Source: a virus (lineage: Duplodnaviria > Heunggongvirae > Uroviricota > Caudoviricetes). From it: DNA of 19,329 nt. The notes beneath the pieces are model-generated. The model saw nothing but the letters and a program-made list of their open reading frames with translations, was not told the DNA's origin and searched no databases. The stretch covers positions 1 to 19,329 of IMG/VR virus record IMGVR_UViG_2802429248_000011, one strand, 5' to 3'. The position numbers and the translations under genes are program-made. Positions 4,319 to 19,329 of the stretch are shown here, piece by piece (position 1 is the stretch's first letter; every line of letters begins with the position of its first letter).

Positions 4319-4372
4319 GCTATATTAAAGCTTTTACTTTAAGCCCCATCGGATCACACATGGAGAGTTTTT

Positions 4373-4640: not shown

Positions 4641-5049
4641 TCTTTCTAAACATCAGATATACAAAGCCCATCATTGAGGGAATCTTATCCATATTTTTTG
4701 AAAAATGCAAGCATCACGTTGCCATCTTCATTGAAAAACCTTTATCGTGTTACTTTTATCAATTGCACTTCAGCATAGAGTTATCCCAGGCAGCACTTTA
4801 AAGACTTCTACATTACACACACCTTGTCTCCCCTTCTCGTCATATCTGCAAGACCGATATGCATGACGCAGTACATACGCTGAACTGCTTTATCCATCAG
4901 CATATTCTAGTGCTAAAGCGACTTCAGTAGCAGAAGCAAAATTCTGCTACTGTGCCAAACAGGAGTAAACGTCATTTTATGTAATGTTGATTGAGTGGTC
5001 ATAGTATCACCTCAATAACAGCTCTTCGCCCTATCATTGAAAGCATATC

Positions 5050-5058
5050 TGCTATAAT
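5050..5058 (+). promoter_or_regulatory. Extended -10 promoter (TGcTATAAT) for the DUF883-like gene
   Basis: TG at 5050-5051 and TATAAT at 5053-5058. The gene ATG is at 5090 with AGGA upstream. Confidence 0.45.
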
Positions 5059-5089
5059 TAAAAAGCCACTTAACATCAGGACTTCAAAC

Positions 5090-5275
5090 ATGACTTCAAA
5101 TCAATCTGAAAACGAAATAGTTAATACTGTCAAAAAATATGCATCATGTGCTGACGATGCTTTGCAGGCAGGCAAAGAAAACGTTAAAGATAAATTTAGA
5201 AATTATCCACTGACTAGCGTGGTGGTCGCTCTAAGCATAGGGTTAACGCTTGGTTTTATTATTGGCAGAAAATAA
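5090..5275 (+). CDS. Short DUF883 (ElaB/YqjD/YgaM)-like C-tail-anchored membrane protein, 61 aa
   Basis: The C-terminus ...NYPLTSVVVALSIGLTLGFIIGRK matches the ElaB/YqjD tail signature (P-x-x-x-V-x-x-A-x-x-x-G-L-x-L-G-x-(L/I)-(L/I)-x-R-(R/K)). The N-terminal coiled region is shortened. The gene has its own promoter and terminator. The ORF-track start (4991) has no RBS. Confidence 0.5.
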   Translation: MTSNQSENEIVNTVKKYASCADDALQAGKENVKDKFRNYPLTSVVVALSIGLTLGFIIGRK

Positions 5276-5330
5276 TCTTAAGCCTCCCATAAGTCGTACA
5301 CAATCACATCTACCAATTAATGTTCCATTA

Positions 5331-5360
5331 GTAAAAAACCACCTCCTGTGGAGGTGGTTT
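5331..5360. terminator. Intrinsic terminator, strongest on the minus strand (CCACCTCC-aca-GGAGGTGG + U6); also ends the DUF883-like gene on the plus strand
   Basis: Perfect 8-bp GC stem CCACCTCC/GGAGGTGG. The plus-side A6 (5331-5336) gives a U6 tract for the minus strand. On the plus strand the hairpin is followed by TTTAAGG. Confidence 0.6.
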
Positions 5361-5411
5361 AAGGATAGCAACAAAACACAACCTACTTTAAACGGCTATA
5401 TTCTGCTATAT

Positions 5412-5531
5412 CTAAATAATAGGTTCTCTTTTATCATCCGGTGAAAAAGGGTTCAATGGTTGCCCCTCATCAGGACGCTCAACGGGCTCATCATCAGGCT
5501 TACGGTCATCAAAATCTGGATGTTCTGACAT
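5412..5531 (-). CDS. Candidate small acidic Pro-rich protein (39 aa), second gene of a minus-strand mini-operon
   Basis: MSEHPDFDDRKPDDEPVERPDEGQPLNPFSPDDKREPII. SD GGGTGGAAT-ATG is present. It is followed about 50 nt later by the strong minus-strand terminator at 5331-5360. Confidence 0.3.
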   Translation of the reverse strand: MSEHPDFDDRKPDDEPVERPDEGQPLNPFSPDDKREPII

Positions 5532-5566
5532 ATTCCACCCTAGTATTTTTATGCAGGAAAGATTAT

Positions 5567-5674
5567 TTACTCTTTCCGGTTGTCTTTTTTATTATCCTTA
5601 CCCTTACTATCCTCATTGTTTTTATTCCTGTCATGAGATTTTTCATTTGAATCACTTACATATAATGTATTCAT
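5567..5674 (-). CDS. Candidate small highly charged protein (35 aa), first gene of the same mini-operon
   Basis: MNTLYVSDSNEKSHDRNKNNEDSKGKDNKKDNRKE. SD TGGAGTCCCC-ATG is present. A perfect TATAAT -10 on the minus strand lies upstream (plus coordinates 5715-5720). AT-rich DNA makes chance ORFs likely, hence the low confidence. Confidence 0.25.
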   Translation of the reverse strand: MNTLYVSDSNEKSHDRNKNNEDSKGKDNKKDNRKE

Positions 5675-6403
5675 GGGGACTCCAGTTTTTTAACAGCACA
5701 ATGCTGTATCTGTAATTATAGATGCAATTAATCATTATGGTATGTATGTTTCATGCACAAATCAGAAACGCATCTAGTGCTTTAATTAATATGGATTTTA
5801 TTGCTGTAGATTTACAAAAATTTTCATAATTAACCAGCAATATAAGACAAATATCTCATAACATGAGGGAAATCAAGCTCATTTAAAGCAATTTATAATT
5901 TTCATCCTACTATTTTCCCTACACTGCCAACACCAGTTTCGTCGCAACACTCTGACAAGACACCTATAAAATCAGTTTCGTTATCACCTTAATTTTCTTC
6001 ATGGGTAACAAACCGGTAATACATCGATAGCCTGATTGATGCACGTTACTGTTACCTCTTCCCTGCATCAGGATGGCTTCCCAAGATGATATGGTTAATC
6101 ACACTGGAACATTCACGCATAACCGTTTCCTTCATATCCTGCCGTTTTAGCATGTCTTTTCCCCTTCTTGTTAATATCAATGACTAACACAAATCTAAAA
6201 AAGCCAGCAATGTAAAAAAACTGCATTCACGGCAACCAGAATGGTTACCGTTCTGCACAAAGTTTATGTCCACAAAAAAACCACTCTGCGCGGCTTATTG
6301 ATATTTTCCACCGGTATGCATATAAGGCTCATCATTGGAAAACTCTTTGCACGTTTCCTTAGAAAATACAATCGTTATGTCGCCATCGTTCGGTGAAAAT
6401 CTT

Positions 6404-7156
6404 TTATCTTGTCACTTTTCTCAGTTGTGCTTCTGCATACGCTTCTTCCTGCCAGCACTTTGTTACCAGTTTATCAATGACGTCCGCATACCCCTTGTAC
6501 CACTGATAATCTGTCAGGTCCGGTACCAACTTCTGGACATGACGTCGTGCCAGTGTGGTCGGTAAACGACTAAACCTGTTTCCATTACAACGCCCACAAA
6601 TCTTATAAACCGGTACGCCATGAAGCCGGGTTCTTTTTTCATCCAGGACAATACCTTTACCCTTACACCCTCTGCACGCTGTGCTGACTTCGCCCTTACC
6701 ATGGCAATGCTGACATAGTTCCTTCCCCCATTCTTCCTTGATAACAGATTCCCCACTTCTGTAGTGTTTCACCACTTCGCGCAATACATTATGAAATCCC
6801 GTACCTGCACAATGTTCACAGCGAGCCTTACTTGCCGCAGACCTGGAATAATCAGCAAAGGCAAAATTCACAAGGTAAGGGATGATCTGTAACCGGGTTT
6901 CTTCACTCAATTTGTTCAATATCGGGTTATCCAGTGCCATCGCGTAATTGAGCAGACCTTCAATCGCAAACTGAGGGTTCTGAACACCAACTTTTGCCAG
7001 AAATAAGGCAAACCCAAGCGGTGCTTTCGACTGCACCATCCCCTGCGCAGCCATCACATCCGTAATTGTTAAACCACCAGAGCCTGTCGCCGGTGCGTCA
7101 TCGCTCAGTTTTGGTGATTTCGGGGAGTAATATTTCGGTAAGACTTCAAGGTTCAT
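6404..7156 (-). CDS. quuQ: Late-gene antiterminator Q (QuuQ-like, 250 aa) with a Cys-rich zinc-binding region
   Basis: MNLEVLPKYY...CEHCAGTG...CQHCHGKG...CRGCKGKG...CGRCNG. SD GGAGAACGAGC-ATG is present. Position is as expected (upstream DUF968, downstream lysis genes). Length equals K-12 QuuQ (250 aa). The ORF-track start (7198) would overlap the upstream gene. Confidence 0.75.
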   Translation of the reverse strand: MNLEVLPKYYSPKSPKLSDDAPATGSGGLTITDVMAAQGMVQSKAPLGFALFLAKVGVQNPQFAIEGLLNYAMALDNPILNKLSEETRLQIIPYLVNFAFADYSRSAASKARCEHCAGTGFHNVLREVVKHYRSGESVIKEEWGKELCQHCHGKGEVSTACRGCKGKGIVLDEKRTRLHGVPVYKICGRCNGNRFSRLPTTLARRHVQKLVPDLTDYQWYKGYADVIDKLVTKCWQEEAYAEAQLRKVTR

Positions 7157-7169
7157 GCTCGTTCTCCAC

Positions 7170-8165
7170 TTACGCCAGCACGCCAATTGCCAGCGCACGA
7201 TCGATAAAACGAAATATCAGCTTCAGCTGGGAGCCATACTTCTCTTCAAATGCCACGGTATCCGCATGCAGCTCGTCGTGATGCTTTCTGCACAAAGGCA
7301 ACACAAAGAGGTCATGCGCTTTTGTAGCCATTCCACCCTGACCGTGGCCTATCAGGTGGTGGGGATCATCAGCAGGCTTTCCACAACATGCACACGGCTG
7401 TGTCTTAACCCAGCGCGTGTACTTTTCGTTAACCCAGCGGCGACGTTTGGGGCGTAACATAAAAGACTCCGGCGACTCCGGATCCACTTTCAGCGCCAGC
7501 ACCTTTTTCGCTTTATCCTGGATAATGCTGGTGGCAGGAACCGAAGGCACAAGGTCACTTTCCCGGGTGACAGACGGCACAACAGGCTTCGGTAATCTCA
7601 GTGCCTTACGGGCTGCACTTTCCGGTAAGGCATCCGCCAGGTCATTACGAATCAGCCACCAGCACAGTTCCGGCATTGTCACAACGTGACTATCATCAAA
7701 ACCGAGATCCCGACGCACAACAGACAACACCCAACGGGCACAGTTATCCGTTGCCATTGATTCCAGCCGTTCCGTGAACTGATCGCGCAGCTGGTTATCG
7801 CAGTGCCAGCACAGACGGATTGCGCCCGGGGCGTGTCGCATTGTGGTCATGTTCTCGCTGTGCCAGTCGGAATGAGGCCACTGGCAGCCCTTTTCACGAA
7901 GTAACCAGCTTTCAAGACATTCCACGCCACCAGCACGACGGATCACTGCCTCATTGCGGAACACGGCCCGAACGGCAGGATCATCCGCCAGCGGTTGTGA
8001 TGCCGCCGGAACGGCACCACTGGCGAAAGATGAATAACGCTCCGGCTCAGGCTCCAGCAGGACACGCCCCTGCATAAACAGGGGCATCAGCTCTGAACCT
8101 GGCCTGAACAATACGATCCCCATACGCGGGGCAATTTCAGGGGTCAGCAGTGCTCTCACGGTCAC
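7170..8165 (-). CDS. ydfU: DUF968-family protein (YdfU-like) with a C-terminal HNH-like Cys/His motif
   Basis: The C-terminus has ...QPCACCGKPADDPHHLIGHGQGGMATKAHDLFVLPLCRKHHDELH. It lies between the replication genes and Q, as YdfU does in Qin. The start is a GTG; the alternative ATG at 8123 lacks an SD. Confidence 0.6.
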   Translation of the reverse strand: MTVRALLTPEIAPRMGIVLFRPGSELMPLFMQGRVLLEPEPERYSSFASGAVPAASQPLADDPAVRAVFRNEAVIRRAGGVECLESWLLREKGCQWPHSDWHSENMTTMRHAPGAIRLCWHCDNQLRDQFTERLESMATDNCARWVLSVVRRDLGFDDSHVVTMPELCWWLIRNDLADALPESAARKALRLPKPVVPSVTRESDLVPSVPATSIIQDKAKKVLALKVDPESPESFMLRPKRRRWVNEKYTRWVKTQPCACCGKPADDPHHLIGHGQGGMATKAHDLFVLPLCRKHHDELHADTVAFEEKYGSQLKLIFRFIDRALAIGVLA

Positions 8166-8211
8166 CTCAGCGAACGGTATTGCATGAACGCAGAAGAAAA
8201 AAATTCAGCCA

Positions 8212-8469
8212 TCACGCAGTAAACTCCTTCACCAGCGTTTCAAACTGGCTTACCTGGCCTTCCAGTTCCGCCACGCAATCCACCAGCTCATCCACCGCCT
8301 TTTGTGTGCGGTGTTTTGCCTGCAGCAGATCACGCAGCGCCGGAGTAAGCTGCTTGCAGAGCGTATCCTTTGCCACGCTCGTTTTTTCCATCTGTTCAGC
8401 ACAACGAAGCATCTCCTGTGCCTGCCGACGAAGTTGTTCCGGTGAAACAGTGGTTGTTCTGTTATTCAA
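8212..8469 (-). CDS. Small coiled-coil hypothetical protein (85 aa), TTG start coupled to the DnaB stop (TTGA overlap)
   Basis: MNNRTTTVSPEQLRRQAQEMLRCAEQMEKTS... SD ACGGAG is upstream. No family was recognised. Confidence 0.45.
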   Translation of the reverse strand: MNNRTTTVSPEQLRRQAQEMLRCAEQMEKTSVAKDTLCKQLTPALRDLLQAKHRTQKAVDELVDCVAELEGQVSQFETLVKEFTA

Positions 8470-9866
8470 AATAAACGCTCCGTTTTACTGCCCGACATGC
8501 GTTTATTGCTGTATCTGCGCGGATTGCCCGGAGTCATGGGTGTGGAAAGAACCCGGGCACTCTCCTGGTCCACAGGCAGAAAATGTCCGTTATAAAAACG
8601 CCGGTAAATCGTCCCCAGAGAACCGTTACGTTGTTTCGTGATATTGATTTCTGCGATGCCCCTGGCCTGCGTATCCGGGTTGTACACTTCATCCCTGTAA
8701 AGCATCAGAATGATGTCTGCATCCGCCTCTATTTCTCCGGAATTTTTCAGGTCCGAGTTCATGGGGCGTTTATTGGGTCTGGATTCCACGCCGCGGGAGA
8801 GCTGGCTAAGAGCAATCAGCGGAAAACCGCCGGATTTTGCCAGGCTTTTAAGTCCCTTTGAGATTTCCCCCACCGCAAGGTCGTGACGCCCCGTGCTGCG
8901 GGTTTTAATCAGGCCGAGGTAATCGACCACCACCAGCGCCGTTTCCGGGTGTTTCATCCGGTGGTGCTTCGTGGTTGCACATATCTCATCAATGGTCAGG
9001 TTTGCCTGGTCCACCATCCAGATATTACGCCCCGTCATTCGTCCCACGCCCTGCGAGAAACGCGCCCAGTCTTCATCTTCAAAACGGGCAACAGACTTAA
9101 GACGTGATACCGGCATTCCTCCAGCCGCAGACACCATACGTTCACCAATCTGGATGTTCGACATCTCCATGGTGAACAGAAGCACACCATGCCCCTGCTC
9201 AGTCACCTTGTCGATGATGTCCAGCGCAAGTTCGGTTTTCCCCATCGAAGGACGGGCGGCAATGAATACCAGGTCTCCGGGCTCCATACCGCCCGTTTTT
9301 GCGTCCAGTTCATCAATACCGGTCATCAGCGCCCTGGATTTCTCCAGTCCCTGATTGCGGCATTCAACACGGTCGACCACTTCCGGAAGGACATCATCAA
9401 TGTGAACCGGCTGAATGACGCCCTTTCCTGTCGACAGTGTGACCATCATGTTCTGCGCATCCTTCAGAGCATCCTCGGCTGCTTCACAGGTATGCGCATC
9501 ACGTAAATTCTGTAATGCTTCAGTCAGTGTTTTTTCTGCATCGCGCAGTGCGGCATTTCGCCGCAGCGCTGCAACATAGTGCTCCAGTGAAGACTTCACC
9601 CAGGTTTTACGCCCGGTGTCGGTAATCACCGGGGCAAGTTCCGGCATCTCATTGCACAGCAGCACGGGGTCAATGACGCCGGATACGCGAGCCTGTCTGC
9701 AAATCCCCGCGTAAATATCCCTGTACTGACGCACGAAAAAGACATCCGCCGGAAGCGTGGCCAGAATATCCATCACTTCCGGATCAGCCCCACGCAGAAA
9801 AAACGCGCCAATCACGGCACCTTCCAGGTCATCGTTACGCCATGCCGGATTTGTCGTTTTTGTCAT
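8466..9866 (-). CDS. dnaB: Replicative DNA helicase, DnaB family (phage-encoded, P22 gp12-like)
   Basis: Walker A (ARPSMGKTELALDI) and the DnaB C-terminal RecA-like fold motifs (LIALSQLSRGVE, ILMLYRDEVY) are present. The start at 9866 has SD AGAGGTG and an ATGA overlap with the DnaC-like stop. The longer ORF-track start (9905) would overlap by 43 nt. Confidence 0.85.
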   Translation of the reverse strand: MTKTTNPAWRNDDLEGAVIGAFFLRGADPEVMDILATLPADVFFVRQYRDIYAGICRQARVSGVIDPVLLCNEMPELAPVITDTGRKTWVKSSLEHYVAALRRNAALRDAEKTLTEALQNLRDAHTCEAAEDALKDAQNMMVTLSTGKGVIQPVHIDDVLPEVVDRVECRNQGLEKSRALMTGIDELDAKTGGMEPGDLVFIAARPSMGKTELALDIIDKVTEQGHGVLLFTMEMSNIQIGERMVSAAGGMPVSRLKSVARFEDEDWARFSQGVGRMTGRNIWMVDQANLTIDEICATTKHHRMKHPETALVVVDYLGLIKTRSTGRHDLAVGEISKGLKSLAKSGGFPLIALSQLSRGVESRPNKRPMNSDLKNSGEIEADADIILMLYRDEVYNPDTQARGIAEINITKQRNGSLGTIYRRFYNGHFLPVDQESARVLSTPMTPGNPRRYSNKRMSGSKTERLF

Positions 9867-10753
9867 GCTGCCACACCTCTGATATGCGCACGGTAGCTTT
9901 CCCAACCAAACACCAGGCAGTTACACCCACCATCAGTAACGCGATCCACAATCCGTTCACCAATGGATTCTTTAAGCTGTTCAAACGTCAGGTTGCTGAT
10001 CAAAATTGTCGGTAAAACGCTTTCGTAACGCGCATTTATGATTTCCTGCAGGATGGTTATCTCTGTAGGCGTGCCGAACTGCACACCAACCTCATCAATG
10101 ATCAGCAGGTTCAGTGAGGCGAAATGAGCGAGAACTTCATCCTCGGTACGCTCTGAATTGTGGCGCCAGGTATTTTTCACAGCGCGGGTCAGTCGCATAA
10201 CATCCGTAATTTCGACGGTCGCCTGGTGGTGGCGAATAATATTTTTTGCCATTGATACAGCCAGATGATTTTTCCCGGTACCACAATTGCCAATCATGAC
10301 CATGCTGGTACCCGCAGCAAGACACTTCTCCCATGAACCGGCATAGCGCCGACAAGCCTCAAGATTTCTCTGTGCGTCAGCATTCACCGCCTGATAATTC
10401 TCAAACTCGCAGTTCTGGAAGCGGCGGGCAATACCAGCCCTGTCGAGTAATTCATGAACTTTCAGGATGCGTAACGCCTCCTGTACCTGATCCAGCTCAT
10501 TCGCAATGCAGGTCGGGCAACCAGACACCCGTTTGATGGTTTCCCCACGAACATCTGGCCCTTTCAACACCAGACGTGTGTATTTCCCGTGTTTCTCACA
10601 CTCAGCAGTATCCTCGCTTGTCAGCCAGTGTTCACAGCGCCACGGACGCTTCCCGACACGGGCAAACTGCATCTCCTCCTCCAGTTCCGCCCTGCGGTTG
10701 AGCAATTGCGCTTTGTCGTGTTGTGCGTAGTGTTTTTTTAACTGTTCAAACAT
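9863..10753 (-). CDS. DnaC/IstB-like AAA+ helicase loader with an N-terminal Cys/His zinc-finger-like extension
   Basis: Walker A (GNCGTGKNHLAVSMAKN) and Walker B (LLIIDEVG) are present. The N-terminus carries CEHW...CEKH...CPTC. Confidence 0.8.
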   Translation of the reverse strand: MFEQLKKHYAQHDKAQLLNRRAELEEEMQFARVGKRPWRCEHWLTSEDTAECEKHGKYTRLVLKGPDVRGETIKRVSGCPTCIANELDQVQEALRILKVHELLDRAGIARRFQNCEFENYQAVNADAQRNLEACRRYAGSWEKCLAAGTSMVMIGNCGTGKNHLAVSMAKNIIRHHQATVEITDVMRLTRAVKNTWRHNSERTEDEVLAHFASLNLLIIDEVGVQFGTPTEITILQEIINARYESVLPTILISNLTFEQLKESIGERIVDRVTDGGCNCLVFGWESYRAHIRGVAA

Positions 10754-10772
10754 TGTTCATCACCTCGAAAAA

Positions 10773-11582
10773 TCACCAGTTGAAGTTCGTTGAACCGTAG
10801 TCCTGCTCACTGAATCCCGAGATCGGGAGGCCGGTAGTTCGCCCACCTCCGGGAGCGGCTGGCTGTTGCCAAGATTCCTCGAAGTGACGATCGGGTCCAA
10901 AGAACGTCGCAGCCTGCTTCACGAACTGTGTGCCGATATTTCCGGTAGCTCGTACCCAGGCGGCATACCGCTTCACGCCATCAAGCATGGTCTCCGGTTT
11001 TATTCCCTCCCTGATACGGGCTTTCCAGGCTTTGAAGGCTGCTGACTTGGAATTGCCACCGGCACGTTTGGGATATTCCTGCCAGGCCTGTTCAAATTCC
11101 GGTGAATATTCCTGTCGGGCAGAACGCGCTGGTGCAGACGCGTCAGCGGATGCGCCAATAGTTGATTCATTGACTGGTTCTTTGACTGGTTCAAAAGAGT
11201 GACTGGTTCTGGGTGAATCTCCTGCACTACCCCCTAGTGCAACTCCTGCACCACCTGGTGAATTTGTTGCACTAGGTAGTGAATTATTTGCACTACCACC
11301 TAGTGAATCTTTTGCACCATCAAGACGAAGAAGATAAATATTGCTCGAGTTGCCTTTTTCACCTTTCCGGGAAACTTTTTTTACCAGTCCCGATTCACAA
11401 AGAGCCGTAATATGATTCATCACAGAACGTTTGCTAATCTCGCACTGATCAGCAATATGCTGATAGCTGGGCCAGCACTCGCCCTGATCGCTGGCATTAT
11501 CAGCCAGCTTAATCAGAACCAGTTTTCGCAATGGATTCCCCACACGAATTTTCATCGCTTTAACCATCAGCTCCATGCTCAT
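10773..11582 (-). CDS. O: Replication initiator, lambda O-like (N-terminal HTH DNA-binding domain, low-complexity linker, C-terminal domain); the gene contains the ori iterons
   Basis: The N-terminus (...ECWPSYQHIADQCEISKRSVMNHITALCESGLV) is a winged-HTH initiator domain. A Gly/Ser/Ala linker is encoded exactly over the iteron array. SD GGGAGGTG is present. Confidence 0.75.
   Translation of the reverse strand: MSMELMVKAMKIRVGNPLRKLVLIKLADNASDQGECWPSYQHIADQCEISKRSVMNHITALCESGLVKKVSRKGEKGNSSNIYLLRLDGAKDSLGGSANNSLPSATNSPGGAGVALGGSAGDSPRTSHSFEPVKEPVNESTIGASADASAPARSARQEYSPEFEQAWQEYPKRAGGNSKSAAFKAWKARIREGIKPETMLDGVKRYAAWVRATGNIGTQFVKQAATFFGPDRHFEESWQQPAAPGGGRTTGLPISGFSEQDYGSTNFNW
11171..11345. 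repeat. ori: Phage replication origin: 3x TGACTGGTTC direct repeats (11171-11209), 4-5 palindromic iterons TGCACTAcc(n)cCTAGTGAAT (about 11224-11321), and a flanking A/T-rich box (11325-11345)
   Basis: The repeats are read directly from the sequence. Spacing is 20-24 bp, about two helical turns. The location inside the initiator gene mirrors the lambda ori inside O. Confidence 0.7.
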
Positions 11583-11803
11583 AGAGCACCTCCCAGGCGT
11601 TTAAACATTTTTCCGGACTGAAACGCCATCAACGGATAGCTAATGGTGTAGTTACGCCCCAGTAATTCACACACAACTTTCTGGCTTTCGGTGCTGACCA
11701 GGCAAACCCGCAGAACGTGACCGTTGCTGGTGGCGAACCACTGCCCCACACGGGGGCAACGGTTGTATCGGTGATACAGGGAATTAACGATGTAGCGGAT
11801 CAT
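11579..11803 (-). CDS. Hypothetical protein (74 aa), early operon
   Basis: SD GGAGGTG is present. ATGA overlaps occur at both ends (11800-11803 and 11579-11582). Confidence 0.5.
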   Translation of the reverse strand: MIRYIVNSLYHRYNRCPRVGQWFATSNGHVLRVCLVSTESQKVVCELLGRNYTISYPLMAFQSGKMFKRLGGAL

Positions 11804-11994
11804 GGACGCACCTCCGCCGTAGTTACGTATTTAACCGGGCTACCTTTCATTGAGATGGTTTCACACATCTCTGCCGCTTTCAGTTCCGCCGTTTTTCTGG
11901 ATTTATAGCGACGGTGCCAGACAGATACATCCGTGCGAACTGATACATCGTTTCTGTATTCCGTAGTGGAGATGATGATTTCGTAACTAATCAT
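11800..11994 (-). CDS. Hypothetical protein (64 aa), early operon
   Basis: The start at 11994 (MISYEIIISTTEY...) has SD GGGAGGT and an ATGA overlap with the upstream stop. The ORF-track start (12009) lies inside the upstream gene. Confidence 0.5.
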   Translation of the reverse strand: MISYEIIISTTEYRNDVSVRTDVSVWHRRYKSRKTAELKAAEMCETISMKGSPVKYVTTAEVRP

Positions 11995-12353
11995 GGGCGT
12001 ACCTCCCATTGATTACGGCGAAAAGCAGTGTGATTCAGGCTGGTTTCAGCCTCATGGAATGCTCCAATGCAGCTCTCGTAGTACCGCATTGTGCGTAGAC
12101 TTAACCCAAGCTGAAGCATCATCAGGCCATCAAGGGTGATGTAATAACCACGCAGGGAGTCACCATAGATGTGGTAAGTACCCGGTATGAAGTTGCGGGT
12201 AAAAAATTCGCGCGAGCAGTTCAGATACTCGATTTTGTCGACGATGTTCTGGTGCATGCGCTTAAAGTGGCAGGCAACATGCAGGGAGAAAATAACAGCT
12301 TTGCCGTTGACGACTTCGATTTTGAGGAATGGGGAAGTTGGGACTGTAGCCAT
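11991..12353 (-). CDS. Hypothetical protein (120 aa from the strongly supported internal start; the open frame extends to 12653/12887)
   Basis: AAGGAGG lies 8 nt before the ATG at 12353 (MATVPTSPFLKIEVVNGK...). The upstream in-frame stretch translates as a low-complexity G/S/A/P-rich sequence. It would overlap the Rha-like gene by 120 nt and contains an antisense terminator, so it is treated as non-coding. Confidence 0.45.
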   Translation of the reverse strand: MATVPTSPFLKIEVVNGKAVIFSLHVACHFKRMHQNIVDKIEYLNCSREFFTRNFIPGTYHIYGDSLRGYYITLDGLMMLQLGLSLRTMRYYESCIGAFHEAETSLNHTAFRRNQWEVRP

Positions 12354-12740
12354 GATGGCAGCCTCCTTGATCGGTGAAAAACTTCCACCACCGGAGCTGC
12401 GAAACTCATGGGTGGTGAACTGAACAGGGTTCGCAGTACCGGCGATCAAGGAAACCGGCGAGCCTTTCGGCTCCCCTGCCCAGCCCACCATAATTCTGGC
12501 GTGCGTGAGCGCAGACGATAAAAAAGACGCTGGCGCGTCGTATATCGCCTTGATCAATTCCGGGCTGCGACCCCCGGCACCCGCTTTATAAGGTGCTGGA
12601 ACAGTGTAACGTCCCGAAATTACAGAATCAATATTTTGGCTTGAAACATTCATATGCTTACTGGTATTTTTACTAACGCAAATGTTCTTGGATGTTACTG
12701 GCTTACTTCTTTGTGAGGTTGCCTTTACTAACGTTGAGCG

Positions 12741-12767
12741 AGCCGGGTCACTACCCGGCTTTTTTTC
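12741..12767 (+). terminator. Strong plus-strand-only intrinsic terminator, antisense to the early-right operon (3' end of a candidate OOP-like sRNA)
   Basis: AGCCGGGT-cact-ACCCGGCT is followed by T7. On the minus strand the hairpin is followed by CGCTCAACG with no U tract, so pR transcripts read through. It overlaps the stop codon of the Rha-like gene. Confidence 0.7.
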
Positions 12768-13473
12768 ACCGCTGCCAACCAATAACCTGAAATAACCCCA
12801 TTTTCGGGTGATACCAGCGAGTCCCTCGCGGTTCTGCTTCCGCCATAACCTGATGGAAAGCAGCCATAAACGGTTCCACGGCAACAATTGCGCGACGTGA
12901 CAACAATCCGTCCGGCGTCATGAACTCATGGGTGTCTGTAGGAATTTGATAAGCGTTCACCAGATTGCGGCATTTATCATCTGACAAACCGGTTTTCGCT
13001 TTCAGTTGGCGATATCCGGCATAGCCCTCACGAATGTTGCCCTTTTTGATTTGCTCAACTGTTTCGGCAACGTGGCTGACTTTTTCTTCCACCTGAGTGA
13101 TCCGTTTCTGCTGACGAACAGCTTCAAGAGCCATCGCGGCAACCATTTCGATTTCGCTCATTGGCTTACGGATCTGTTCTTCCAGTTCGCGCCAGCGATC
13201 TACTAGGCGGGCTGTGAATTCGGGACAAAGCTGTGCGACGACAATGATGCTGTCGCGCTTACCTTGTTCGCCTTCGAAGATGTAAGCACCTACATTTCGT
13301 TTTAATCCTAAGTTGTTGATTATTTCGAAATTCGCCATTGGCGCACTTCGAATAATCCCCTTATCCATGAGCCTTTCAATGCTGCGCTTAACATCTTTGT
13401 GTTGGCTGCCCACCAACTCTGCGATTTCAAGGCTGGTCATGGATGCTTTGCCGTTAAAAATTGCGGTGTTCAT
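12766..13473 (-). CDS. rha: Rha-family phage regulatory protein (intact paralog)
   Basis: The N-terminus ...SMTSLEIAELVGSQHKDVKRSIERLMDKGII... matches the Phage_pRha domain. ATGA coupling with the cro-like stop. Confidence 0.6.
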   Translation of the reverse strand: MNTAIFNGKASMTSLEIAELVGSQHKDVKRSIERLMDKGIIRSAPMANFEIINNLGLKRNVGAYIFEGEQGKRDSIIVVAQLCPEFTARLVDRWRELEEQIRKPMSEIEMVAAMALEAVRQQKRITQVEEKVSHVAETVEQIKKGNIREGYAGYRQLKAKTGLSDDKCRNLVNAYQIPTDTHEFMTPDGLLSRRAIVAVEPFMAAFHQVMAEAEPRGTRWYHPKMGLFQVIGWQR

Positions 13474-13733
13474 TGTTGGTCTCCTGTGGGCTTGTCATCC
13501 TCTGTGTGCGCTAAGCTTGGATGTGGAAAAAGCTCTGGTAGGTCTGGACGAAATTCATACGCTTGGATCTTTCCGTCGACAGCTGCAACCAATAACGGCA
13601 CAAATTCTGGTGAAATCTTGTTCTTGCAGTTCAACCAATCGCAGACTGTTGACTGGGCCTTTCCGCATCGCTTGGCTAAGGCTTGCTGACTTCCAAGAAT
13701 CTCAATAGCTTTCTCTATGGCTTTATGTTTCAT
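13470..13733 (-). CDS. cro: Cro-like / YdaS-like HTH regulator, first gene of the pR operon
   Basis: MKHKAIEKAIEILGSQQALAKRCGKAQSTVCDWLN... is an HTH. SD AGGAG lies 8 nt upstream. The gene is divergent from cI across an operator/promoter region. Confidence 0.65.
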   Translation of the reverse strand: MKHKAIEKAIEILGSQQALAKRCGKAQSTVCDWLNCKNKISPEFVPLLVAAVDGKIQAYEFRPDLPELFPHPSLAHTEDDKPTGDQQ

Positions 13734-13745
13734 AATCGCATCTCC

Positions 13746-13774
13746 TATTGAACGCATAATAACAACAGGAAAAG
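13746..13774 (-). promoter_or_regulatory. pR-like sigma70 promoter for the early-right operon
   Basis: On the minus strand: -35 TTGAAT (13769-13774), 17-bp spacer, -10 TATTAT (13746-13751), about 12 nt to the cro SD. Confidence 0.55.
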
Positions 13775-13808
13775 CGATATTCAACGTTAAACCTAGAACA
13801 TTTATCGG
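13775..13808. promoter_or_regulatory. Operator-like sites in the cro/cI intergenic region (oR): palindrome TATCGGAAAGCCGATA (13793-13808) and related CGTTAAACCTAG (13775-13786)
   Basis: A 16-bp perfect palindrome lies upstream of the pR -35. A second related site abuts the -35. Both resemble the two sites at the promoter downstream of cI. Confidence 0.45.
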
Positions 13809-13852
13809 AAAGCCGATAGACTAGCCAAGATAGAGAGGGGAGGAAAATCGCA

Positions 13853-14545
13853 ATGACATTTTCAGAACGACTTGATTTAGCTATGCGCAACGCAAAATTT
13901 ACGCAAGGTAGGCTGGCCAAAGAAGTGGGTATGGCTCAGTCCAGTGTCAATCAACTACTTAACAAAGCCAACGGTTCCAGAAAAACAGTCGAAATAGCAA
14001 AAGTTTTGGGCGTTAACCCGGAATGGCTCGCATCGGGTGTTGGCCCAATGGAAATCGTGACCTCTGCAGACTCACACCAAATACGTAACATTTCTGAAGA
14101 TTGGGTTACTGATTCGTATGTCGTGGATGTTTTAGACATCAGATATAGTTGCGGACCTGGCAGTTATAACTCTGATTTTCCTGACATTGTCAGATCTATA
14201 GCGATAGAACCAGGATACGCATCAAGAGTTTTTGGCGGCAGACCAGCATCAGCAATCAAAGCAATAAACGCCCACGGCGACAGTATGAAAGGCACAATAG
14301 ACCCTGAAGACTTGGTATTTGTAGATGTATCAGTTCGCACATTTAATGGTGATGGTATATACGCCTTTACATACTCTGGAACATCGCACATCAAAAGACT
14401 TCAAAAAATCAAAGATACTCTAACGGTGATATCTGACAACCCAGCTTACAAGGATTGGGCTATCGAACCGGAAGACTTTGAACAACTTCACATTGACGGA
14501 AAAGTAATTGTCAGTTGGCCTATGACACTACACCGTTTTGCATAA
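13853..14545 (+). CDS. cI: CI-type prophage repressor (N-terminal XRE HTH, C-terminal S24 LexA-like autopeptidase)
   Basis: The N-terminal HTH is QGRLAKEVGMAQSSVNQL. The C-terminus has the Ser nucleophile in AHGDSMKGTI and the Lys in SHIKRLQKI. SD GGGGAGG is present. Confidence 0.85.
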   Translation: MTFSERLDLAMRNAKFTQGRLAKEVGMAQSSVNQLLNKANGSRKTVEIAKVLGVNPEWLASGVGPMEIVTSADSHQIRNISEDWVTDSYVVDVLDIRYSCGPGSYNSDFPDIVRSIAIEPGYASRVFGGRPASAIKAINAHGDSMKGTIDPEDLVFVDVSVRTFNGDGIYAFTYSGTSHIKRLQKIKDTLTVISDNPAYKDWAIEPEDFEQLHIDGKVIVSWPMTLHRFA

Positions 14546-14563
14546 GCAAAAATCATTTAACCC

Positions 14564-14589
14564 GCCCACTCTTAAGTGGGCTTTTTTTT
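14564..14589 (+). terminator. Intrinsic terminator after cI
   Basis: GCCCACT-ctta-AGTGGGC is followed by T8. Confidence 0.75.
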
Positions 14590-14596
14590 GGAAAAA

Positions 14597-14638
14597 ATCG
14601 ATAAACCGATTGACAGGCGAAATCGGTAAACCTATTAT
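14597..14638 (+). promoter_or_regulatory. pL-like sigma70 promoter (-35 TTGACA 14610-14615, 17 bp, -10 TATTAT 14633-14638) flanked or overlapped by two operator-like sites (AATCGATAAACCGATT 14597-14612; AATCGGTAAACCTATT 14621-14636)
   Basis: The -35 is a consensus hexamer and the spacing is ideal. Both flanking 16-mers share the ATCGR-TAAA-CCKAT pattern with the oR palindrome. Confidence 0.6.
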
Positions 14639-14687
14639 TATGGCATAGGTATCGAACTCACCAAAGCAATTATAGAGGATGAGAAAA

Positions 14688-15185
14688 ATGTCATCGTATA
14701 TGGGGTTACCAACAAATCAGCACGATGCTCTTGAGAATATTCAGCTCTTAGTCGGGGCTGGTGCACTACTGTATAGCAGCAATAACCCTGAGTTAATTGA
14801 ACTTGCCAGCTCCATCCTGGCTGTAACTCAAAAATATAGCCTCACAGCGTCGCGTTTATGCAAACAAAATTTAGCTATTAATTCCCAGAATCGGATTAGC
14901 ACTCAACGCGAAGCCTGCGGCTTAACAACCGCCGAACTCGCCAGGCTGCTCGATCTCGATGAAGAAATTATCATCCAGTGGGAGAGCGGAGAGTATGAAC
15001 CAACCATCAGCATGCTTATCCCACTGGCAAATATTCTTGGCTGCGATCCGATGTGGCTGTTAACTGGCGAGGTTACTCCTCCGGAGCAACCAAAAAGTGA
15101 GGAGCAGCAACACCATGACGCATCTCAACAAGTTTGCTCCTTATCTCGCGAAGCTCTTCTACGGAAGAACCAATACCAATGGTGA
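14688..15185 (+). CDS. XRE-family HTH transcriptional regulator (165 aa; HTH in the C-terminal half), first gene after the pL-like promoter
   Basis: ...CGLTTAELARLLDLDEEIIIQWESGEYEPTISMLIPLANILGCDPMWLLTGE is HTH_3-like and resembles DicA-type repressors. The ATG at 14688 has AGAGGA at -8. The first ATG (14679) abuts the SD. Confidence 0.6.
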   Translation: MSSYMGLPTNQHDALENIQLLVGAGALLYSSNNPELIELASSILAVTQKYSLTASRLCKQNLAINSQNRISTQREACGLTTAELARLLDLDEEIIIQWESGEYEPTISMLIPLANILGCDPMWLLTGEVTPPEQPKSEEQQHHDASQQVCSLSREALLRKNQYQW

Positions 15186-15313
15186 CATAATCACCGCTTC
15201 GCCCCTCAAGGTACATGCGAACATTTTTATCAATCATTGCGGAAACAGTCTCAATATGAAAACACTTCTGAGACTCGCTATATAGCAGAACATATAAGTC
15301 AGCTGAGGAAGCC

Positions 15314-15679
15314 GTGAAAAAGTTCGAAAACATAACTGCTCTCCATGTTGATGACTTTGATTATACAAACCCGGAACTTCTCCCGGAGGTTGTAAAGGCA
15401 ATAGATGTTGCCGATATAGTGATTAGAGGAAAGAGAATCGTCAAAAACAGGCTCGCATGCACTTCAGGAGCAATGACAGAAACAACCTCACAACAAGATG
15501 ATTATGAAGGCATTTGTCTGGAGCCGGACTCATTTGCGGTAAATGTTTATCATTTATTGCATGCAACACAGGTATTACATATGTCAAGTAATCACGAAAC
15601 AAAAACACTTGGCAGCGAAATTCTGAATTTTGCATGTGAATATGCAAAAGCTGCTGCCGAAAAAGAATTAGCACAATAA
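15314..15679 (+). CDS. Hypothetical protein (121 aa), GTG start
   Basis: SD GAGGAAGCC-GTG is present. No family was recognised. Confidence 0.45.
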   Translation: MKKFENITALHVDDFDYTNPELLPEVVKAIDVADIVIRGKRIVKNRLACTSGAMTETTSQQDDYEGICLEPDSFAVNVYHLLHATQVLHMSSNHETKTLGSEILNFACEYAKAAAEKELAQ

Positions 15680-15875
15680 CAATAAATATTCCCTGAATGT
15701 TTATTACGGTTTTATCGCCGGGGATTGTTGCAACCTTTATTCGCAGGTGATTATGTTATGACTTTCCTGAAACATAAGGCATCGTATAAAACTGCCTGCC
15801 TCATTGTACAACATGGAGATTCTTATCTTCATATAGCCAACCTGTATTTGCGCAAAGCATATGGGAGATAAGTCA

Positions 15876-16064
15876 ATGGAAGAAAAACAACAAAACATAA
15901 CACATAAAAAAGTAAGAGTGTTGCTAACCATTGAAAATGGGAAGGTAATTCACTCAAAACATCTGTTGGATAATGAATTTGTTGGCTGCATGGATACATT
16001 TTTGTTGGTGGTAAAAAGAGCGGGTTACACTATTATTCCACCAGCAAAGGAGCAAACATTATGA
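15876..16064 (+). CDS. Hypothetical protein (62 aa)
   Basis: SD GGGAGATAAGTCA-ATG is present. ATGA overlap with the next gene. A possible promoter precedes it (TTGCAA 15728-15733, 17 bp, TTATGT 15751-15756). Confidence 0.5.
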   Translation: MEEKQQNITHKKVRVLLTIENGKVIHSKHLLDNEFVGCMDTFLLVVKRAGYTIIPPAKEQTL

Positions 16065-16642
16065 ATCATTCAGAGTTCCGACCAGAAGTTACGCCACACG
16101 GTATAAAAATTGGCAATACAACCATAGATTATGCCGAGGCCGTACAGCGACTTAATGATGGTGAATACGATAATCCAAATTCTCAAGGTTTAAGAATTAT
16201 GCAGTGTATTGCTGAAGCCGATGATGCCGGATTACTGGGACGATTTTCAGTCGATATGAAAGTTGCTCAATGGCGATGGCTGTATGTGACAACATTTATA
16301 AATGAAGAGGAAGACAAGAACGGCACCATTGATATCCCTAACGATAATGGAACTACAGATCGCGCAGTTATTTACAAGGGTAAACATGGTTGCCTGAGTA
16401 TCTACCCAGGGCCACTTCGCATTGCCCTGCAAAACCATGTCGAATGGAGATTCATTGAAAAATATGGCGAAGCTGAAGGCATGGGGCGAGTTCTGTTTCT
16501 CTATCAAAAAATGCTCATCGCAGATCCTGATAATGGCTTCATTGTCTCTGCTATGGGACGAGAAGGGCTTGAACTTCTTCTGGATGAAATGATTCACGAT
16601 CTGAATACTCATGGTATGCCAGAAACACCATTGGCACATTAA
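16061..16642 (+). CDS. Hypothetical protein (193 aa)
   Basis: SD AAGGAG lies 9 nt upstream. Translationally coupled to both neighbours. No motif was recognised. Confidence 0.6.
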   Translation: MNHSEFRPEVTPHGIKIGNTTIDYAEAVQRLNDGEYDNPNSQGLRIMQCIAEADDAGLLGRFSVDMKVAQWRWLYVTTFINEEEDKNGTIDIPNDNGTTDRAVIYKGKHGCLSIYPGPLRIALQNHVEWRFIEKYGEAEGMGRVLFLYQKMLIADPDNGFIVSAMGREGLELLLDEMIHDLNTHGMPETPLAH

Positions 16643-16644
16643 AC

Positions 16645-16926
16645 ATGTCAAATCAGAATAAAATTAATGTATTTCAGGTTGAATCAAAACATAAAACACC
16701 TGTGATAAAACACGTTCGCCGCCATACACTCATCTATACGCCAGAAGAGTTTATGGCAATTCCAATGATAAAGAAGTTTATTCGTGATAATCCCGATCAC
16801 ATTGCTATAGATAAACATAACGGAGAAATAATGTTATCACGCGAACTTGCCGAAATTTACTGTAACGTGAATAACGGTAAAAAATTGAAAAAGGCAATCC
16901 GAAAAAAATCAGGAGTAACAAAATGA
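16645..16926 (+). CDS. Hypothetical basic protein (93 aa)
   Basis: The start is 2 nt after the preceding stop. Lys-rich C-terminus. ATGA overlap with the next gene. Confidence 0.5.
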   Translation: MSNQNKINVFQVESKHKTPVIKHVRRHTLIYTPEEFMAIPMIKKFIRDNPDHIAIDKHNGEIMLSRELAEIYCNVNNGKKLKKAIRKKSGVTK

Positions 16927-17291
16927 ATAGCATCGAGACACAATGTTCCTCATCTGAAGTTATGAACTATGACCCGAATCTGACGTTGTACGGACGCATG
17001 GCAAAACAAACTGTTCTATTAACTTTCGGGCTATGGGAATACCGCGAAACATTCGAAGTTTCTGTCGGCGGCAATCTGACCGGACTGGATGTTATCAGTT
17101 GCGCCATTGAAAGCCTGTACGCAACGCTGCCTTATGAAGAAGTCGAGGATGAGCGCGATATCATAGCCACCATTAATATCGGCGGCATGGAATGCAAGGA
17201 TGAAAACCTGAACGGAGAACTCTGGCTTGCCGGGATGCTTATCTCGGCAGAAATCATCAGTATTGAACCCGCTACAAACATACGACTCTGA
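16923..17291 (+). CDS. Hypothetical protein (122 aa)
   Basis: SD AGGAG lies 7 nt upstream and the gene is coupled to its neighbours. Confidence 0.55.
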   Translation: MNSIETQCSSSEVMNYDPNLTLYGRMAKQTVLLTFGLWEYRETFEVSVGGNLTGLDVISCAIESLYATLPYEEVEDERDIIATINIGGMECKDENLNGELWLAGMLISAEIISIEPATNIRL

Positions 17292-17322
17292 AGTTCTCAC
17301 AACTCAGGGAGCAGGAGAAAAA

Positions 17323-17565
17323 ATGTTCGCTTTGATTAATCAGGGGCAACTGTATACCGATAGTGCTGGCTACCCGATAAAAATTATTCGCTGCATAAAC
17401 AACACTGTGTTGTACAGAAGAATGGATGGGCGAACACAGTCGGTAAAAATAAACGATTTTAATGAACTGTTTGAACGAATCGATCACCAGGAATACCGAC
17501 AAATTCTGGCAGAAACAGAGCAGGAAGCTCATCTGAAAAAATTACGGGTCATGAAAAGGAAGTAA
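17323..17565 (+). CDS. Hypothetical protein (80 aa)
   Basis: MFALINQGQLYTDSAGYPIKIIRCINNTVLYRRMDGRTQSVKINDF... has SD GGAGCAGGAG at -7. The ORF-track start (17227) overlaps the previous gene and has no RBS. Confidence 0.5.
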   Translation: MFALINQGQLYTDSAGYPIKIIRCINNTVLYRRMDGRTQSVKINDFNELFERIDHQEYRQILAETEQEAHLKKLRVMKRK

Positions 17566-17568
17566 AGA

Positions 17569-17715
17569 ATGAATAAAGCGTTTGAGCTATGGGTACGCCA
17601 GCGTTACGGCAATCGCTATGACCTGACGCGAGATGTTGACGGTTTCCACTGTCGTGAAATTGTGAAACGAATGTTTGAAGTGTGGTGTTACTGTCGTGGA
17701 CTGAATGTTGTGTGA
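17569..17715 (+). CDS. Small hypothetical protein (48 aa), below the ORF-track length cutoff
   Basis: atgaataaagcg...gttgtgtga translates to MNKAFELWVRQRYGNRYDLTRDVDGFHCREIVKRMFEVWCYCRGLNVV. SD AAGGAAG is at -8. It fills the gap between neighbouring genes exactly. Confidence 0.45.
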   Translation: MNKAFELWVRQRYGNRYDLTRDVDGFHCREIVKRMFEVWCYCRGLNVV

Positions 17716-17723
17716 GGTAATGC

Positions 17724-17960
17724 ATGGGCAATGTGATTCAACTGGCTCCCAATGAATGGGTTTGTGAAAGCGTTCTTATCGCAATTACCGGGCTCAAACC
17801 AGGCACAATTCTTCGGGCCCGGAAAGAATGCTGGATGGTTGGAAGAGAGTATATTCACGTATCACCAGACGGTAATCCAAAGCCTTCCAGCGAATGTATG
17901 TATAACAGAAAAGCAATAGATGCCTGGGTCGCTTCAATGAAAAACAAACAACCTGGGTGA
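17724..17960 (+). CDS. xis: Excisionase-like protein (DUF1233/Xis family of Rac/DLP12-type prophages)
   Basis: ...AITGLKPGTILRARKECWMVGREYIHVSPDGNPKPSSECMYNRKAIDAWV. It lies immediately upstream of int. SD GAGGT is present. Confidence 0.6.
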   Translation: MGNVIQLAPNEWVCESVLIAITGLKPGTILRARKECWMVGREYIHVSPDGNPKPSSECMYNRKAIDAWVASMKNKQPG

Positions 17961-18015
17961 TTTAATGCCATGAAATATGTAAGCTCGTATCGCTCTTGGG
18001 CGTCTGGAGGTATGA

Positions 18016-19329
18016 ATGGATAAAGTTAAATATCCAACAGGCGTCGAAAACCACGGTGGCACATTGCGCATCTGGTTTAATTTTAAAGGTAAACGTGTCA
18101 GGGAAAATCTTGGTGTCCCTGACACTGCCAAGAACAGGAAGATTGCCGGAGAACTGCGGACATCGGTATGTTTTGCCATCCGCACAGGAAGCTTTGATTA
18201 TGCTGCACAGTTCCCTGACTCCCCTAACCTTCAGGCTTTTGGGGTAAGTAAAAAAGAAATTACGGTGAAAGAACTTGAAGAAAAGTGGCTGGATCTGAAA
18301 CGAATGGAAATCTCTGCAAATGCATTCAATCGTTATGAATCCGTTGCAAGAACGATGGTCCCGAAAATTGGAGGTAGCAGACTGGTGTCAACGGTGACCA
18401 AAGAGGAATTGCTGTATATCAGGAAAGATTTGCTGACCGGATACCAAAATCCAACAAAAGGTAAGGCTCCGGTAAAAGGGCGAAGCGTTATCACAGTAAA
18501 TTATTACATGACGACAATCGCTGGAATGTTTCAGTTTGCTGCAGATCACGGTTACTTAGAAGCAAATCCCTTCCAGGGAATTAAGCCTCTTAAAAGAGCC
18601 AGGGCAGAGCCAGATCCGCTAACTCGTGACGAATTTATTCGCCTGATAGATGCTTGCCGACATCAGCAGACGAAAAACCTGTGGTCATTGGCTGTGTACA
18701 CAGGAATGCGTCACGGTGAACTGGTCTCCCTGGCCTGGGAAGATATCGATCTGAAAGCAGGAACTATTACTATCAGGCGCAATTATACGAAACTCGGTGA
18801 GTTCACTCTACCTAAAACTGAAGCAAGTACAAACAGGGTTGTGCATCTTATCCAGCCCGCTATCAGTGTCCTGAAAAATCAGGCTGAAATGACAAGACTG
18901 GGTAAGCAGCACAACATCAAGGTTCAACTACGTGAATATGGACGTTCAGTGAATCATGAATGTACTTTCGTGTTTAACCCCCAGGTGGTTAGAAAAAGCA
19001 AACAGGTCGGTTTTATCTACAAGGTAGATTCTATTGGCGACTCATGGGAAACAGCCATTAAGCGTGCGGGCATCAGGCACCGGAAAGCATACCAGTCACG
19101 ACACACTTATGCGTGCTGGTCATTATCTGCCGGAGCAAACCCAAGCTTCATTGCCAGCCAGATGGGCCATGCAAGTGCCCAGATGGTGTTCAATGTATAC
19201 GGAGCATGGATGACTGACAGTAATGCAGAACAGATCGCAATGCTGAATCAGAAGCTGGCAGATTATGTCCCAATGATGTCCCATGGTCACCAAAGTGACA
19301 CAAGAGACTTATTAAAATCAGTGGGTTAG
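18016..19329 (+). CDS. int: Tyrosine integrase, lambda-Int superfamily (Rac/P22-type N-terminal arm-binding domain)
   Basis: The N-terminus YPTGVENHGGTLRIWFNFKGKRVRENLG resembles the IntR/P22 Int N-terminus. The C-terminal catalytic motifs ...HELVSLAWEDI..., HRKAYQSRHTYACWS and VYGAWM (Tyr) are present. The stop codon is the last triplet of the window. Confidence 0.9.
   Translation: MDKVKYPTGVENHGGTLRIWFNFKGKRVRENLGVPDTAKNRKIAGELRTSVCFAIRTGSFDYAAQFPDSPNLQAFGVSKKEITVKELEEKWLDLKRMEISANAFNRYESVARTMVPKIGGSRLVSTVTKEELLYIRKDLLTGYQNPTKGKAPVKGRSVITVNYYMTTIAGMFQFAADHGYLEANPFQGIKPLKRARAEPDPLTRDEFIRLIDACRHQQTKNLWSLAVYTGMRHGELVSLAWEDIDLKAGTITIRRNYTKLGEFTLPKTEASTNRVVHLIQPAISVLKNQAEMTRLGKQHNIKVQLREYGRSVNHECTFVFNPQVVRKSKQVGFIYKVDSIGDSWETAIKRAGIRHRKAYQSRHTYACWSLSAGANPSFIASQMGHASAQMVFNVYGAWMTDSNAEQIAMLNQKLADYVPMMSHGHQSDTRDLLKSVG

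Follow-up and report, generated by a model that had tools for sequence, protein, structure and literature searches.

We analyzed a 19,329-nucleotide stretch of Caudoviricetes DNA (IMG/VR record IMGVR_UViG_2802429248_000011, positions 1 to 19,329; referred to below as the window), in which a gene for a helix-turn-helix (HTH) protein of the Cro/C1 type lies directly downstream of the repressor gene cI, behind a promoter overlapped by short inverted repeats (Table 1). A preliminary description, made from the sequence alone, had presented this gene as a second repressor-like gene, and had proposed that the repeats are read either by CI, as in the left operator and early-left promoter (oL/pL) of lambda, or by the HTH protein itself. 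The cI product combines an N-terminal HTH with an S24 autopeptidase domain at its C-terminus, and the motifs GDSM and KRLQK were read in its translation; the gene is divergent from a cro-like gene whose 3' end overlaps a Rha gene at 12766-13473; on the cro side, Rha is followed by Ash/Rha and by genes for a DnaD-like initiator, a DnaC-like loader and the DnaB helicase. Downstream of the promoter, the + strand carries the HTH gene, an L08-like gene, several small genes (phrog_340, phrog_1515, DUF5406 and DUF4222), an excisionase gene and an integrase gene. This layout is the lambdoid plan with the promoter at 14610-14638 in the position of pL, and the HTH gene is the first gene of the early-left operon, in the position of lambda N.

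The promoter is close to consensus, with TTGACA at 14610-14615, a 17-bp spacer and TATTAT at 14633-14638, and it is the only + strand match of the promoter scan in 13400-15400 (11/12 matches). An intrinsic terminator of the cI transcript stands between cI and this promoter. Two 16-mers, AATCGATAAACCGATT (OL1) and AATCGGTAAACCTATT (OL2), overlap the promoter with a centre-to-centre distance of 25 bp, and both match a palindrome in the gap between cro and cI, TATCGGAAAGCCGATA (OR-a) at 13803-13818, just as the preliminary description had reported. All the sequence features that it placed here are present, although it set their start one base too late, and its picture of 16-mers bracketing the -35 and -10 elements holds loosely: both sites do overlap the promoter, but OL1 lies on the edge of the -35 and OL2 in the spacer and the -10. 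The sites can be summarized by the degenerate 16-mer consensus WATMGRNNNNYCKATW (WATMGR-N4-YCKATW), with the half-sites AATMGR and YCKATT. When WATMGRNNNNYCKATW was searched for over the window, exact matches were confined to the two regulatory gaps; there are three of them in 19.3 kb, namely OL1, OL2 and OR-a, compared with 0.06 expected, and none of 200 shuffles (0/200) reaches three. Allowing up to one mismatch adds one match only, at 13734-13749 in the cro/cI gap, and the resulting total of four (1.5 expected) is reached in 16 of 200 shuffles, while matches with two mismatches are at chance level.

To place these repeats in context, the window was compared with 91 fetched loci (92 sequences in total, 91 parsed), drawn from E. 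coli chromosomes, sequenced phages and 80 IMG/VR contigs. The sequenced phage relatives include phiP27 (genes L12-L11-L10), PhiR49_2, phi467, ASU11 and Stx1/Stx2 phages of the "Eru7" type. The relatives have a common gene order of cro, gap, cI, promoter and HTH gene, and the HTH gene, which is L10-like, is found directly after cI and behind a promoter in 91 loci. At least eight immunity cassettes can be distinguished, A (the window), B (phiP27), C1-C3, D (ASU11), E and F, and between cassettes the DNA-binding domains of CI share only 20-40% identity; a sigma-70-like promoter was found at the equivalent position in 8/8 cassette types. In every cassette the repeats flanking this promoter recur in the cro/cI gap of that same cassette, and they differ between cassettes. 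A 6 x 6 matrix of near-matches between the left and the right operator regions (oL and oR), built from 12-mers with low-complexity masking, is dominated by its diagonal, and none of the other arrangements among 720 permutations scores as well as the true pairing. A simpler count of 7-9-mers shared between oL and oR was too noisy in this AT-rich DNA and was dropped. The exact type-A consensus occurs three times per locus at equivalent positions in all 11 other type-A loci (11/11), and outside type A it has one stray match among about 90 loci of other cassettes. Phage ASU11 has its own motif, WATAG-N6-CTATW, with five matches in 5.4 kb, of which three lie in oR and the other two, upstream of the HTH gene in oL, are 25 bp apart, the same distance as in the window.

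Conservation within type A follows the outline of a footprint. Among the type-A loci (n=11), the operator half-sites and the promoter hexamers are fixed, whereas variation is free in the 5 bp that separate the -35 from OL2 and in the 4 bp at the centre of OL2; OL1 and the cI terminator are both kept across type-A loci. Shortly past the -10, the conserved segment ATAGGTATCGAAC of the 5' untranslated region (UTR), at 14649-14662, contains two elements in tandem that resemble the left half-site (ATAGG and ATCGA), and it may represent a third, weak oL element or simply a conserved leader. The cro/cI gap probably holds three operator sites. Besides OR-a, they are OR-b, whose position in loci L002 and L016 has an exact consensus match (AATAGGTAAATCGATA), and OR-c, which shows no change in any type-A locus, the divergent L072 included, a conservation confounded by the ribosome-binding site (RBS) of cro.

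These observations suggest that the 16-mers are very probably OL1 and OL2 of a pL promoter controlled by CI and Cro in a lambdoid Escherichia prophage related to phiP27 and Eru7. Dimers of the prophage's own CI would bind the half-sites AATMGR/YCKATT, and Cro would probably occupy the same sites in early lytic growth. The 25-bp spacing would permit pairwise cooperative binding over the -35 and the -10, so that in a lysogen the promoter would be off, with the terminator after cI blocking read-through from pRM (the promoter for repressor maintenance). On SOS induction, which the S24 domain leads us to infer, RecA-stimulated autocleavage of CI would allow the promoter to fire, and the transcript would then span the L10-like gene, the L08-like gene, the small genes, xis and int. 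Of the two possibilities raised in the preliminary description, it is thus control by CI as an oL/pL analogue that the position of the promoter, the operators common to it and the cro/cI gap, the footprint and the covariation with cI all favor. The description had also supposed that an accessory cluster is switched with the lysogeny state, and the switching seems right, but the cluster is the early-left operon itself, ending in xis and int.

The same promoter could be read as a constitutive one of the "moron" type that expresses the HTH gene in the lysogen, the 16-mers being coincidental or structural. The promoter is close to consensus and has a terminator ahead of it, as is often the case with morons, and the count with up to one mismatch is not beyond chance when taken alone. 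It is nevertheless highly improbable that the promoter is of this kind, given that the three exact matches far exceed expectation and all fall in regulatory gaps, that the type-A loci show the footprint-like conservation, that ASU11 repeats the layout of three and two sites with a different motif, and that the genes downstream include xis and int and have no other strong promoter.

Several points weigh against the assignment to CI and Cro. The motif count is partly circular, as the pattern WATMGRNNNNYCKATW was built from the sites that are counted, and real weight thus comes from the comparative data. The case for binding and repression by CI is in turn wholly comparative, and CI and Cro are indistinguishable by sequence as readers of the sites. 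The oR layout is unlike that of lambda, with sites 30 and 39 bp apart, one of them degenerate and one over the cro RBS, and pRM could not be placed with confidence in the cro/cI gap. Finally, covariation with the operators is also seen for the N-terminal domain of the L10-like protein, and covariation alone therefore leaves this domain as a possible reader.

Table 1. Features of the immunity region and early-left operon in the window
Feature	Position	Strand	Basis and remarks
cro-like gene (YdaS-family HTH), 87 aa, divergent from cI	13470-13733	-	Pfam YdaS_toxin 9.5e-15; phrog_35
Candidate operator OR-c, AATCGCATCTCCTATT	13734-13749		1 mismatch; over cro RBS and predicted pR start
Candidate pR (early-right promoter) for cro, TTGAAT-17-TATTAT, extended TG	13756-13784	-	Promoter scan, 9/12; inferred
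Candidate operator OR-b, AACAGGAAAAGCGATA, degenerate	13764-13779		In pR spacer; 2 mismatches, chance level alone
Putative operator OR-a, TATCGGAAAGCCGATA, perfect palindrome	13803-13818		Over likely pRM region; conserved in type-A loci
cI repressor	13853-14545	+	Peptidase_S24 7.5e-17; HTH_19/HTH_3; phrog_4 1.4e-53
Intrinsic terminator of cI transcript	14564-14589	+	7-bp stem (14564-14581), 5 G-C pairs, then T8
Candidate operator OL1, AATCGATAAACCGATT	14596-14611		Exact consensus match; abuts -35, covers its first 2 nt
pL-type promoter, TTGACA-17-TATTAT	14610-14638	+	11/12 matches
Candidate operator OL2, AATCGGTAAACCTATT	14621-14636		Exact consensus match; occupies spacer, covers 4 nt of -10
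N-terminal helical-hairpin domain of L10-like protein	14688-14906	+	AlphaFold model (AF2); immunity-cassette-specific
Conserved Cro/C1-type HTH core	14907-15071	+	HTH_3
Acidic/Q-rich tail of the open reading frame	15072-15185	+	Unselected read-through; pLDDT <50
Small conserved gene, 86 aa	15073-15333	-	phrog_6104 5.9e-49
L08-like gene	15314-15679	+	phrog_5451 1.4e-82, phrog_4587
Excisionase, distal end of early-left operon	17724-17960	+	DUF1233, putative excisionase, 9.5e-33
Integrase, runs off window	18016-19329	+	Arm-DNA-bind_2, Phage_integrase

The HTH gene occupies an open reading frame (ORF) of 168 amino acids (aa) at 14679-15185 on the + strand. Its start is likely ATG 14688 (MSSY...), with the RBS AGAGGA at 14674-14679, in preference to ATG 14679, because the gene is annotated in this way in near-identical genomes. 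The HTH_3 domain spans aa 76-127 (1.5e-10; 41.3 bits, Pfam cut-off 23), and the N-terminal extension of about 75 aa noticed in the preliminary description is therefore real. The protein matches the profiles of phrog_4739 (3.6e-57) and phrog_4836 (2.9e-50) over their full length and thus belongs to the family of phiP27 L10; the label "CII-like regulator" attached to phrog_4836 is an annotation with no tested function, and other sources give generic names. Our literature searches found no study of the L10-like protein or of the type-A operators. The L10 core is present in 335 of 5426 complete E. coli genomes, a scan of genome contigs with the HTH core returned only distant, unrelated HTH proteins, and the family appears confined to Escherichia.

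The AlphaFold model of the protein, with a mean predicted local distance difference test score (pLDDT) of 76, has an N-terminal helical hairpin (helices 11-29 and 34-76, pLDDT 85-93), a five-helix HTH (81-126) and a disordered tail. In a superposition of the HTH core on the DNA-binding domain of P22 c2, the root-mean-square deviation is 0.8 Å over 63 columns (32% identity). Fold searches of PDB and BFVD matched the HTH core only and gave no match for the N-terminal hairpin, and a sequence-profile search of PDB with the L10-like protein gave generic matches only. Membership in the DicA family was also considered and was rejected, as the protein scores 45.4 bits with the NCBIfam DicA model NF007257, over aa 68-142 only, far under the cut-off of 101; the term "DicA-like" used for it earlier is acceptable at the superfamily level but not for a family member.

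It could be supposed that the L10-like HTH itself binds the 16-mers, represses its own promoter and adds a second, independent layer of immunity. The protein is a genuine Cro/C1-type HTH protein whose gene comes directly after the promoter with its operators, and members of this superfamily commonly regulate their own genes. Against this, the L10 HTH core (REACGLTTAELARLLDLDEEIIIQWESGEYEPTISMLIPLANILGCDP) is 84-100% identical across cassettes with unrelated repeats around the promoter, and fully identical in A, C1 and E, and about 80 loci encode the same core without the type-A motif. The same motif is present between cro and cI, at the place where CI and Cro have to act, and the recognition region of the L10-like protein, DEEIIIQWES, is unlike AQSSVNQLLN of CI, the two helix-turn-helices failing to align. 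Moreover, if pL is repressed by CI, the protein would be absent in the lysogen and could confer no immunity. It is thus extremely improbable that the protein is autoregulatory in this way, and the second alternative of the preliminary description finds no support, given the near-constant core over at least eight cassettes. As no single recognition helix can read eight unrelated sets of operators, the target of the L10 HTH would be one common to heteroimmune phages, and hence other than the oL and oR operators.

The heading "second repressor-like gene" given to this gene is misleading. The HTH core is not immunity-specific, the protein has no S24 domain in Pfam and the gene lies behind a terminator and an operator-covered promoter. 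An immunity repressor has an immunity-specific recognition domain, and is expected to be expressed in the lysogen, divergently paired with cro and usually equipped with an S24 or another inactivation domain. None of these is found for the L10-like protein, whereas divergent pairing with cro and the S24 domain are both found in the neighbor at 13853-14545.

As for a target of the L10 HTH, a scan for inverted repeats in 14640-18020 yielded weak pairs only, and no non-coding DNA next to the L10-like gene is conserved across all cassettes. In two loci of other cassettes the 5'UTR of the gene forms a hairpin whose 3' arm covers the Shine-Dalgarno sequence, L006 at 2383-2429 (z = -3.7) and L012 at about 2722-2765 (z = -5.6). 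Such strong hairpins suggest translational control, or alternatively a DNA palindrome. The 5'UTR of the gene in the window has no significant structure (z = -0.5).

The N-terminal domain differs from the HTH core in its pattern of conservation. The L10 N-domains are distantly homologous, with 23-41% identity between cassettes, and the type of the N-domain agrees with the type of cI in 91/91 loci. The type-A block of cI, pL and N-domain is intact in all 25 of the 5426 complete E. coli genomes that contain a substantial part of it; the only other matches to this block are in three genomes, where just the final 45 bp of the query, corresponding to the linker ahead of the HTH core, are shared. Diverged sequence gives way sharply to conserved sequence at or just upstream of the domain junction, and in the three genomes the boundary is about 15 codons upstream. 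The architectures past the HTH core combine freely with the cassette types, and they comprise a short form, a tail form and a form with two HTH domains; within the same cassettes, proteins either end just past WLLTG (136 aa) or continue into a second HTH domain (216-245 aa). The conserved HTH core is a recombination joint.

It is conceivable that the N-domain is itself immunity-specific, either reading the operators or binding the CI or Cro of its own prophage, perhaps as an anti-repressor through which induction becomes irreversible. The constant inclusion of the N-domain in the immunity cassette would then be accounted for, and the idea agrees with the complete match to cI type, with the intact blocks (25/25 type-A complete E. 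coli genomes), with the free recombination past the HTH core and with the sharp boundary near the domain junction. However, only 100-145 bp lie between the cI stop codon and the beginning of the N-domain, and tight physical linkage, which is the simplest explanation, suffices for the association without any function, because this gap offers no homology for crossovers. Moreover, the independent cassettes number only about eight, the predicted fold of the domain is a plain helical hairpin that matches no DNA-binding fold, and its paralogue in L08 is not cassette-specific. We therefore regard an immunity-specific N-domain as distinctly unlikely.

The paralogue just mentioned lies in the C-terminal residues 68-115 of L08, which are homologous to the L10 N-domain (phrog_4587; hhalign probability 92%, E 5e-7), and L08 is at least 93% identical across cassettes. 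In Bacillus subtilis SinR, the helical oligomerization module of an HTH protein likewise has a paralogue in the product of an HTH-less neighbor, SinI. The likeness is one of analogy only: the sequences are unrelated, the domains come in the opposite order, L08 has an extra N-terminal domain and an interaction between L10 and L08 is hypothetical. One may speculate that in phiP27- and Eru7-like phages the L10-like protein is a so far unrecognized early regulator in the place of N. The target of its invariant HTH would be one that heteroimmune phages have in common, or would lie in the host, its fast-diverging N-domain would be a functional part of the immunity cassette, through cassette-specific self-association or contact with cognate CI or Cro, and L08 would modulate it in the manner of SinI with SinR; taken as a whole, we consider this scheme unlikely.

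In loci L005 and L008-L011, which include ASU11 and the Stx1/Stx2 "Eru7" phages, the conserved core is followed by a second, different HTH. Proteins termed "Clade VIII CI" have been described with two HTH domains and no peptidase (PMC8951638). These might be L10-like forms with two HTH domains that were mistaken for CI.

The acidic and Q-rich tail ascribed to the protein in the preliminary description is present as part of the ORF, but it is antisense to a conserved gene on the minus strand. This gene, at 15073-15333, is oriented convergently to pL transcription; it shares sequence with the tail of the HTH ORF at one end and with the start of the L08-like gene at the other, and the promoter scan found no promoter for it. 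In L005 and L072, which are 76-77% identical in the tail segment, the minus-strand ORF is intact, with 15-17 synonymous vs 14-16 non-synonymous codon changes, whereas the + frame has 3-4 synonymous vs 28-29 non-synonymous changes together with stop codons. The closer relatives L012, L017 and L081 likewise have a stop in the tail frame, and the variable sites favor third codon positions of the minus frame. Because the minus frame is kept intact while the + frame gains stops, the tail is an accidental antisense read-through that is under no selection.

In the + strand of 15100-19329, our scans found no intrinsic terminator and no strong promoter, and there is no N homolog between the HTH gene and the integrase gene. 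The early-left operon may need no antitermination.

On the other side of the immunity region, the last ~15 codons of cro (…HPSLAHTEDDKPTGDQQ), which overlap the start of Rha, are common to heteroimmune cassettes (window 13470-13520; L001, L005, L010 and L011). This shared 3' end apparently marks the right-hand mosaic boundary of the immunity cassette, within cro. Some type-A prophages, among them that of E. coli UMNF18 and those of enterotoxigenic E. coli (ETEC) strains, have a bssS-family gene between the Rha gene and cro (L002, 3128-3445), an apparent moron within the early-right region.

In lambda, and in the equivalent regions of P22, 434 and 933W, oL/pL is a strong promoter past cI with immunity-specific operators, from which an operon ending in xis and int is transcribed, and adjacent lambda operators are about 24-25 bp apart centre to centre. 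The window resembles this arrangement in having a promoter beyond cI that points away from it, immunity-specific operators, 25 bp apart and of the same sequence type as those in the cro/cI gap, and a xis/int operon; in every respect that can be judged from sequence, it looks like a CI-controlled early-left promoter. It differs in having two detected oL sites rather than three, in operators of 16 bp with the half-site AATMGR, in the oR spacing given above and in a first gene that encodes an XRE-type HTH protein and not an N-type antiterminator as in lambda-type members. Further differences are that no nut-like element was noticed in the window, where none was searched for, and that no + strand terminators were detected in the operon.

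P22 c2 is the best structural match of the HTH core in the window, but the window protein has no S24/oligomerization domain at its C-terminus, has a helical hairpin at its N-terminus instead, and its specificity is not linked to immunity. DicA, the repressor of the Qin prophage, is likewise a Cro/C1-type HTH protein with similar motifs in helices 4-5, and some database homologs of the window protein are named "DicA". The HTH of the window protein is C-terminal to a domain of 70 aa, however, whereas that of DicA is N-terminal; and dicA lies opposite dicC, from which it is divergent, whereas the window gene is downstream of a genuine cI and is not divergently paired with a cro-type gene.

The closest likeness is with the L12-L11-L10 region of phiP27 and with Eru7, where the order of the cro-like gene, cI, the promoter, the L10-like gene and the L08-like gene is the same and the HTH core is 90-96% identical, although the immunity cassette is another one, with a cI, a cro, operators and an L10 N-domain unlike those of the window. 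The Rha-family gene adjoins cro in the window as has been described for Eru7, of which Stx2_14040 is the type phage (PMC8951638).

The control logic proposed here is itself textbook, and to find such a promoter is ordinary. What the comparison with these phages adds is an assignment of putative operators and an early-left promoter for one immunity type in a group that includes phiP27 and the widespread "Eru7" Shiga-toxin phages, and the layout of three and two operators recurs with different sequences in sister cassettes. It also averts a mis-annotation, in that the second HTH gene is neither DicA nor a second immunity repressor and its tail does not constitute a domain. The L10-like protein, common and uncharacterized, would be the first to be expressed on induction, and may offer a modest lead for follow-up.

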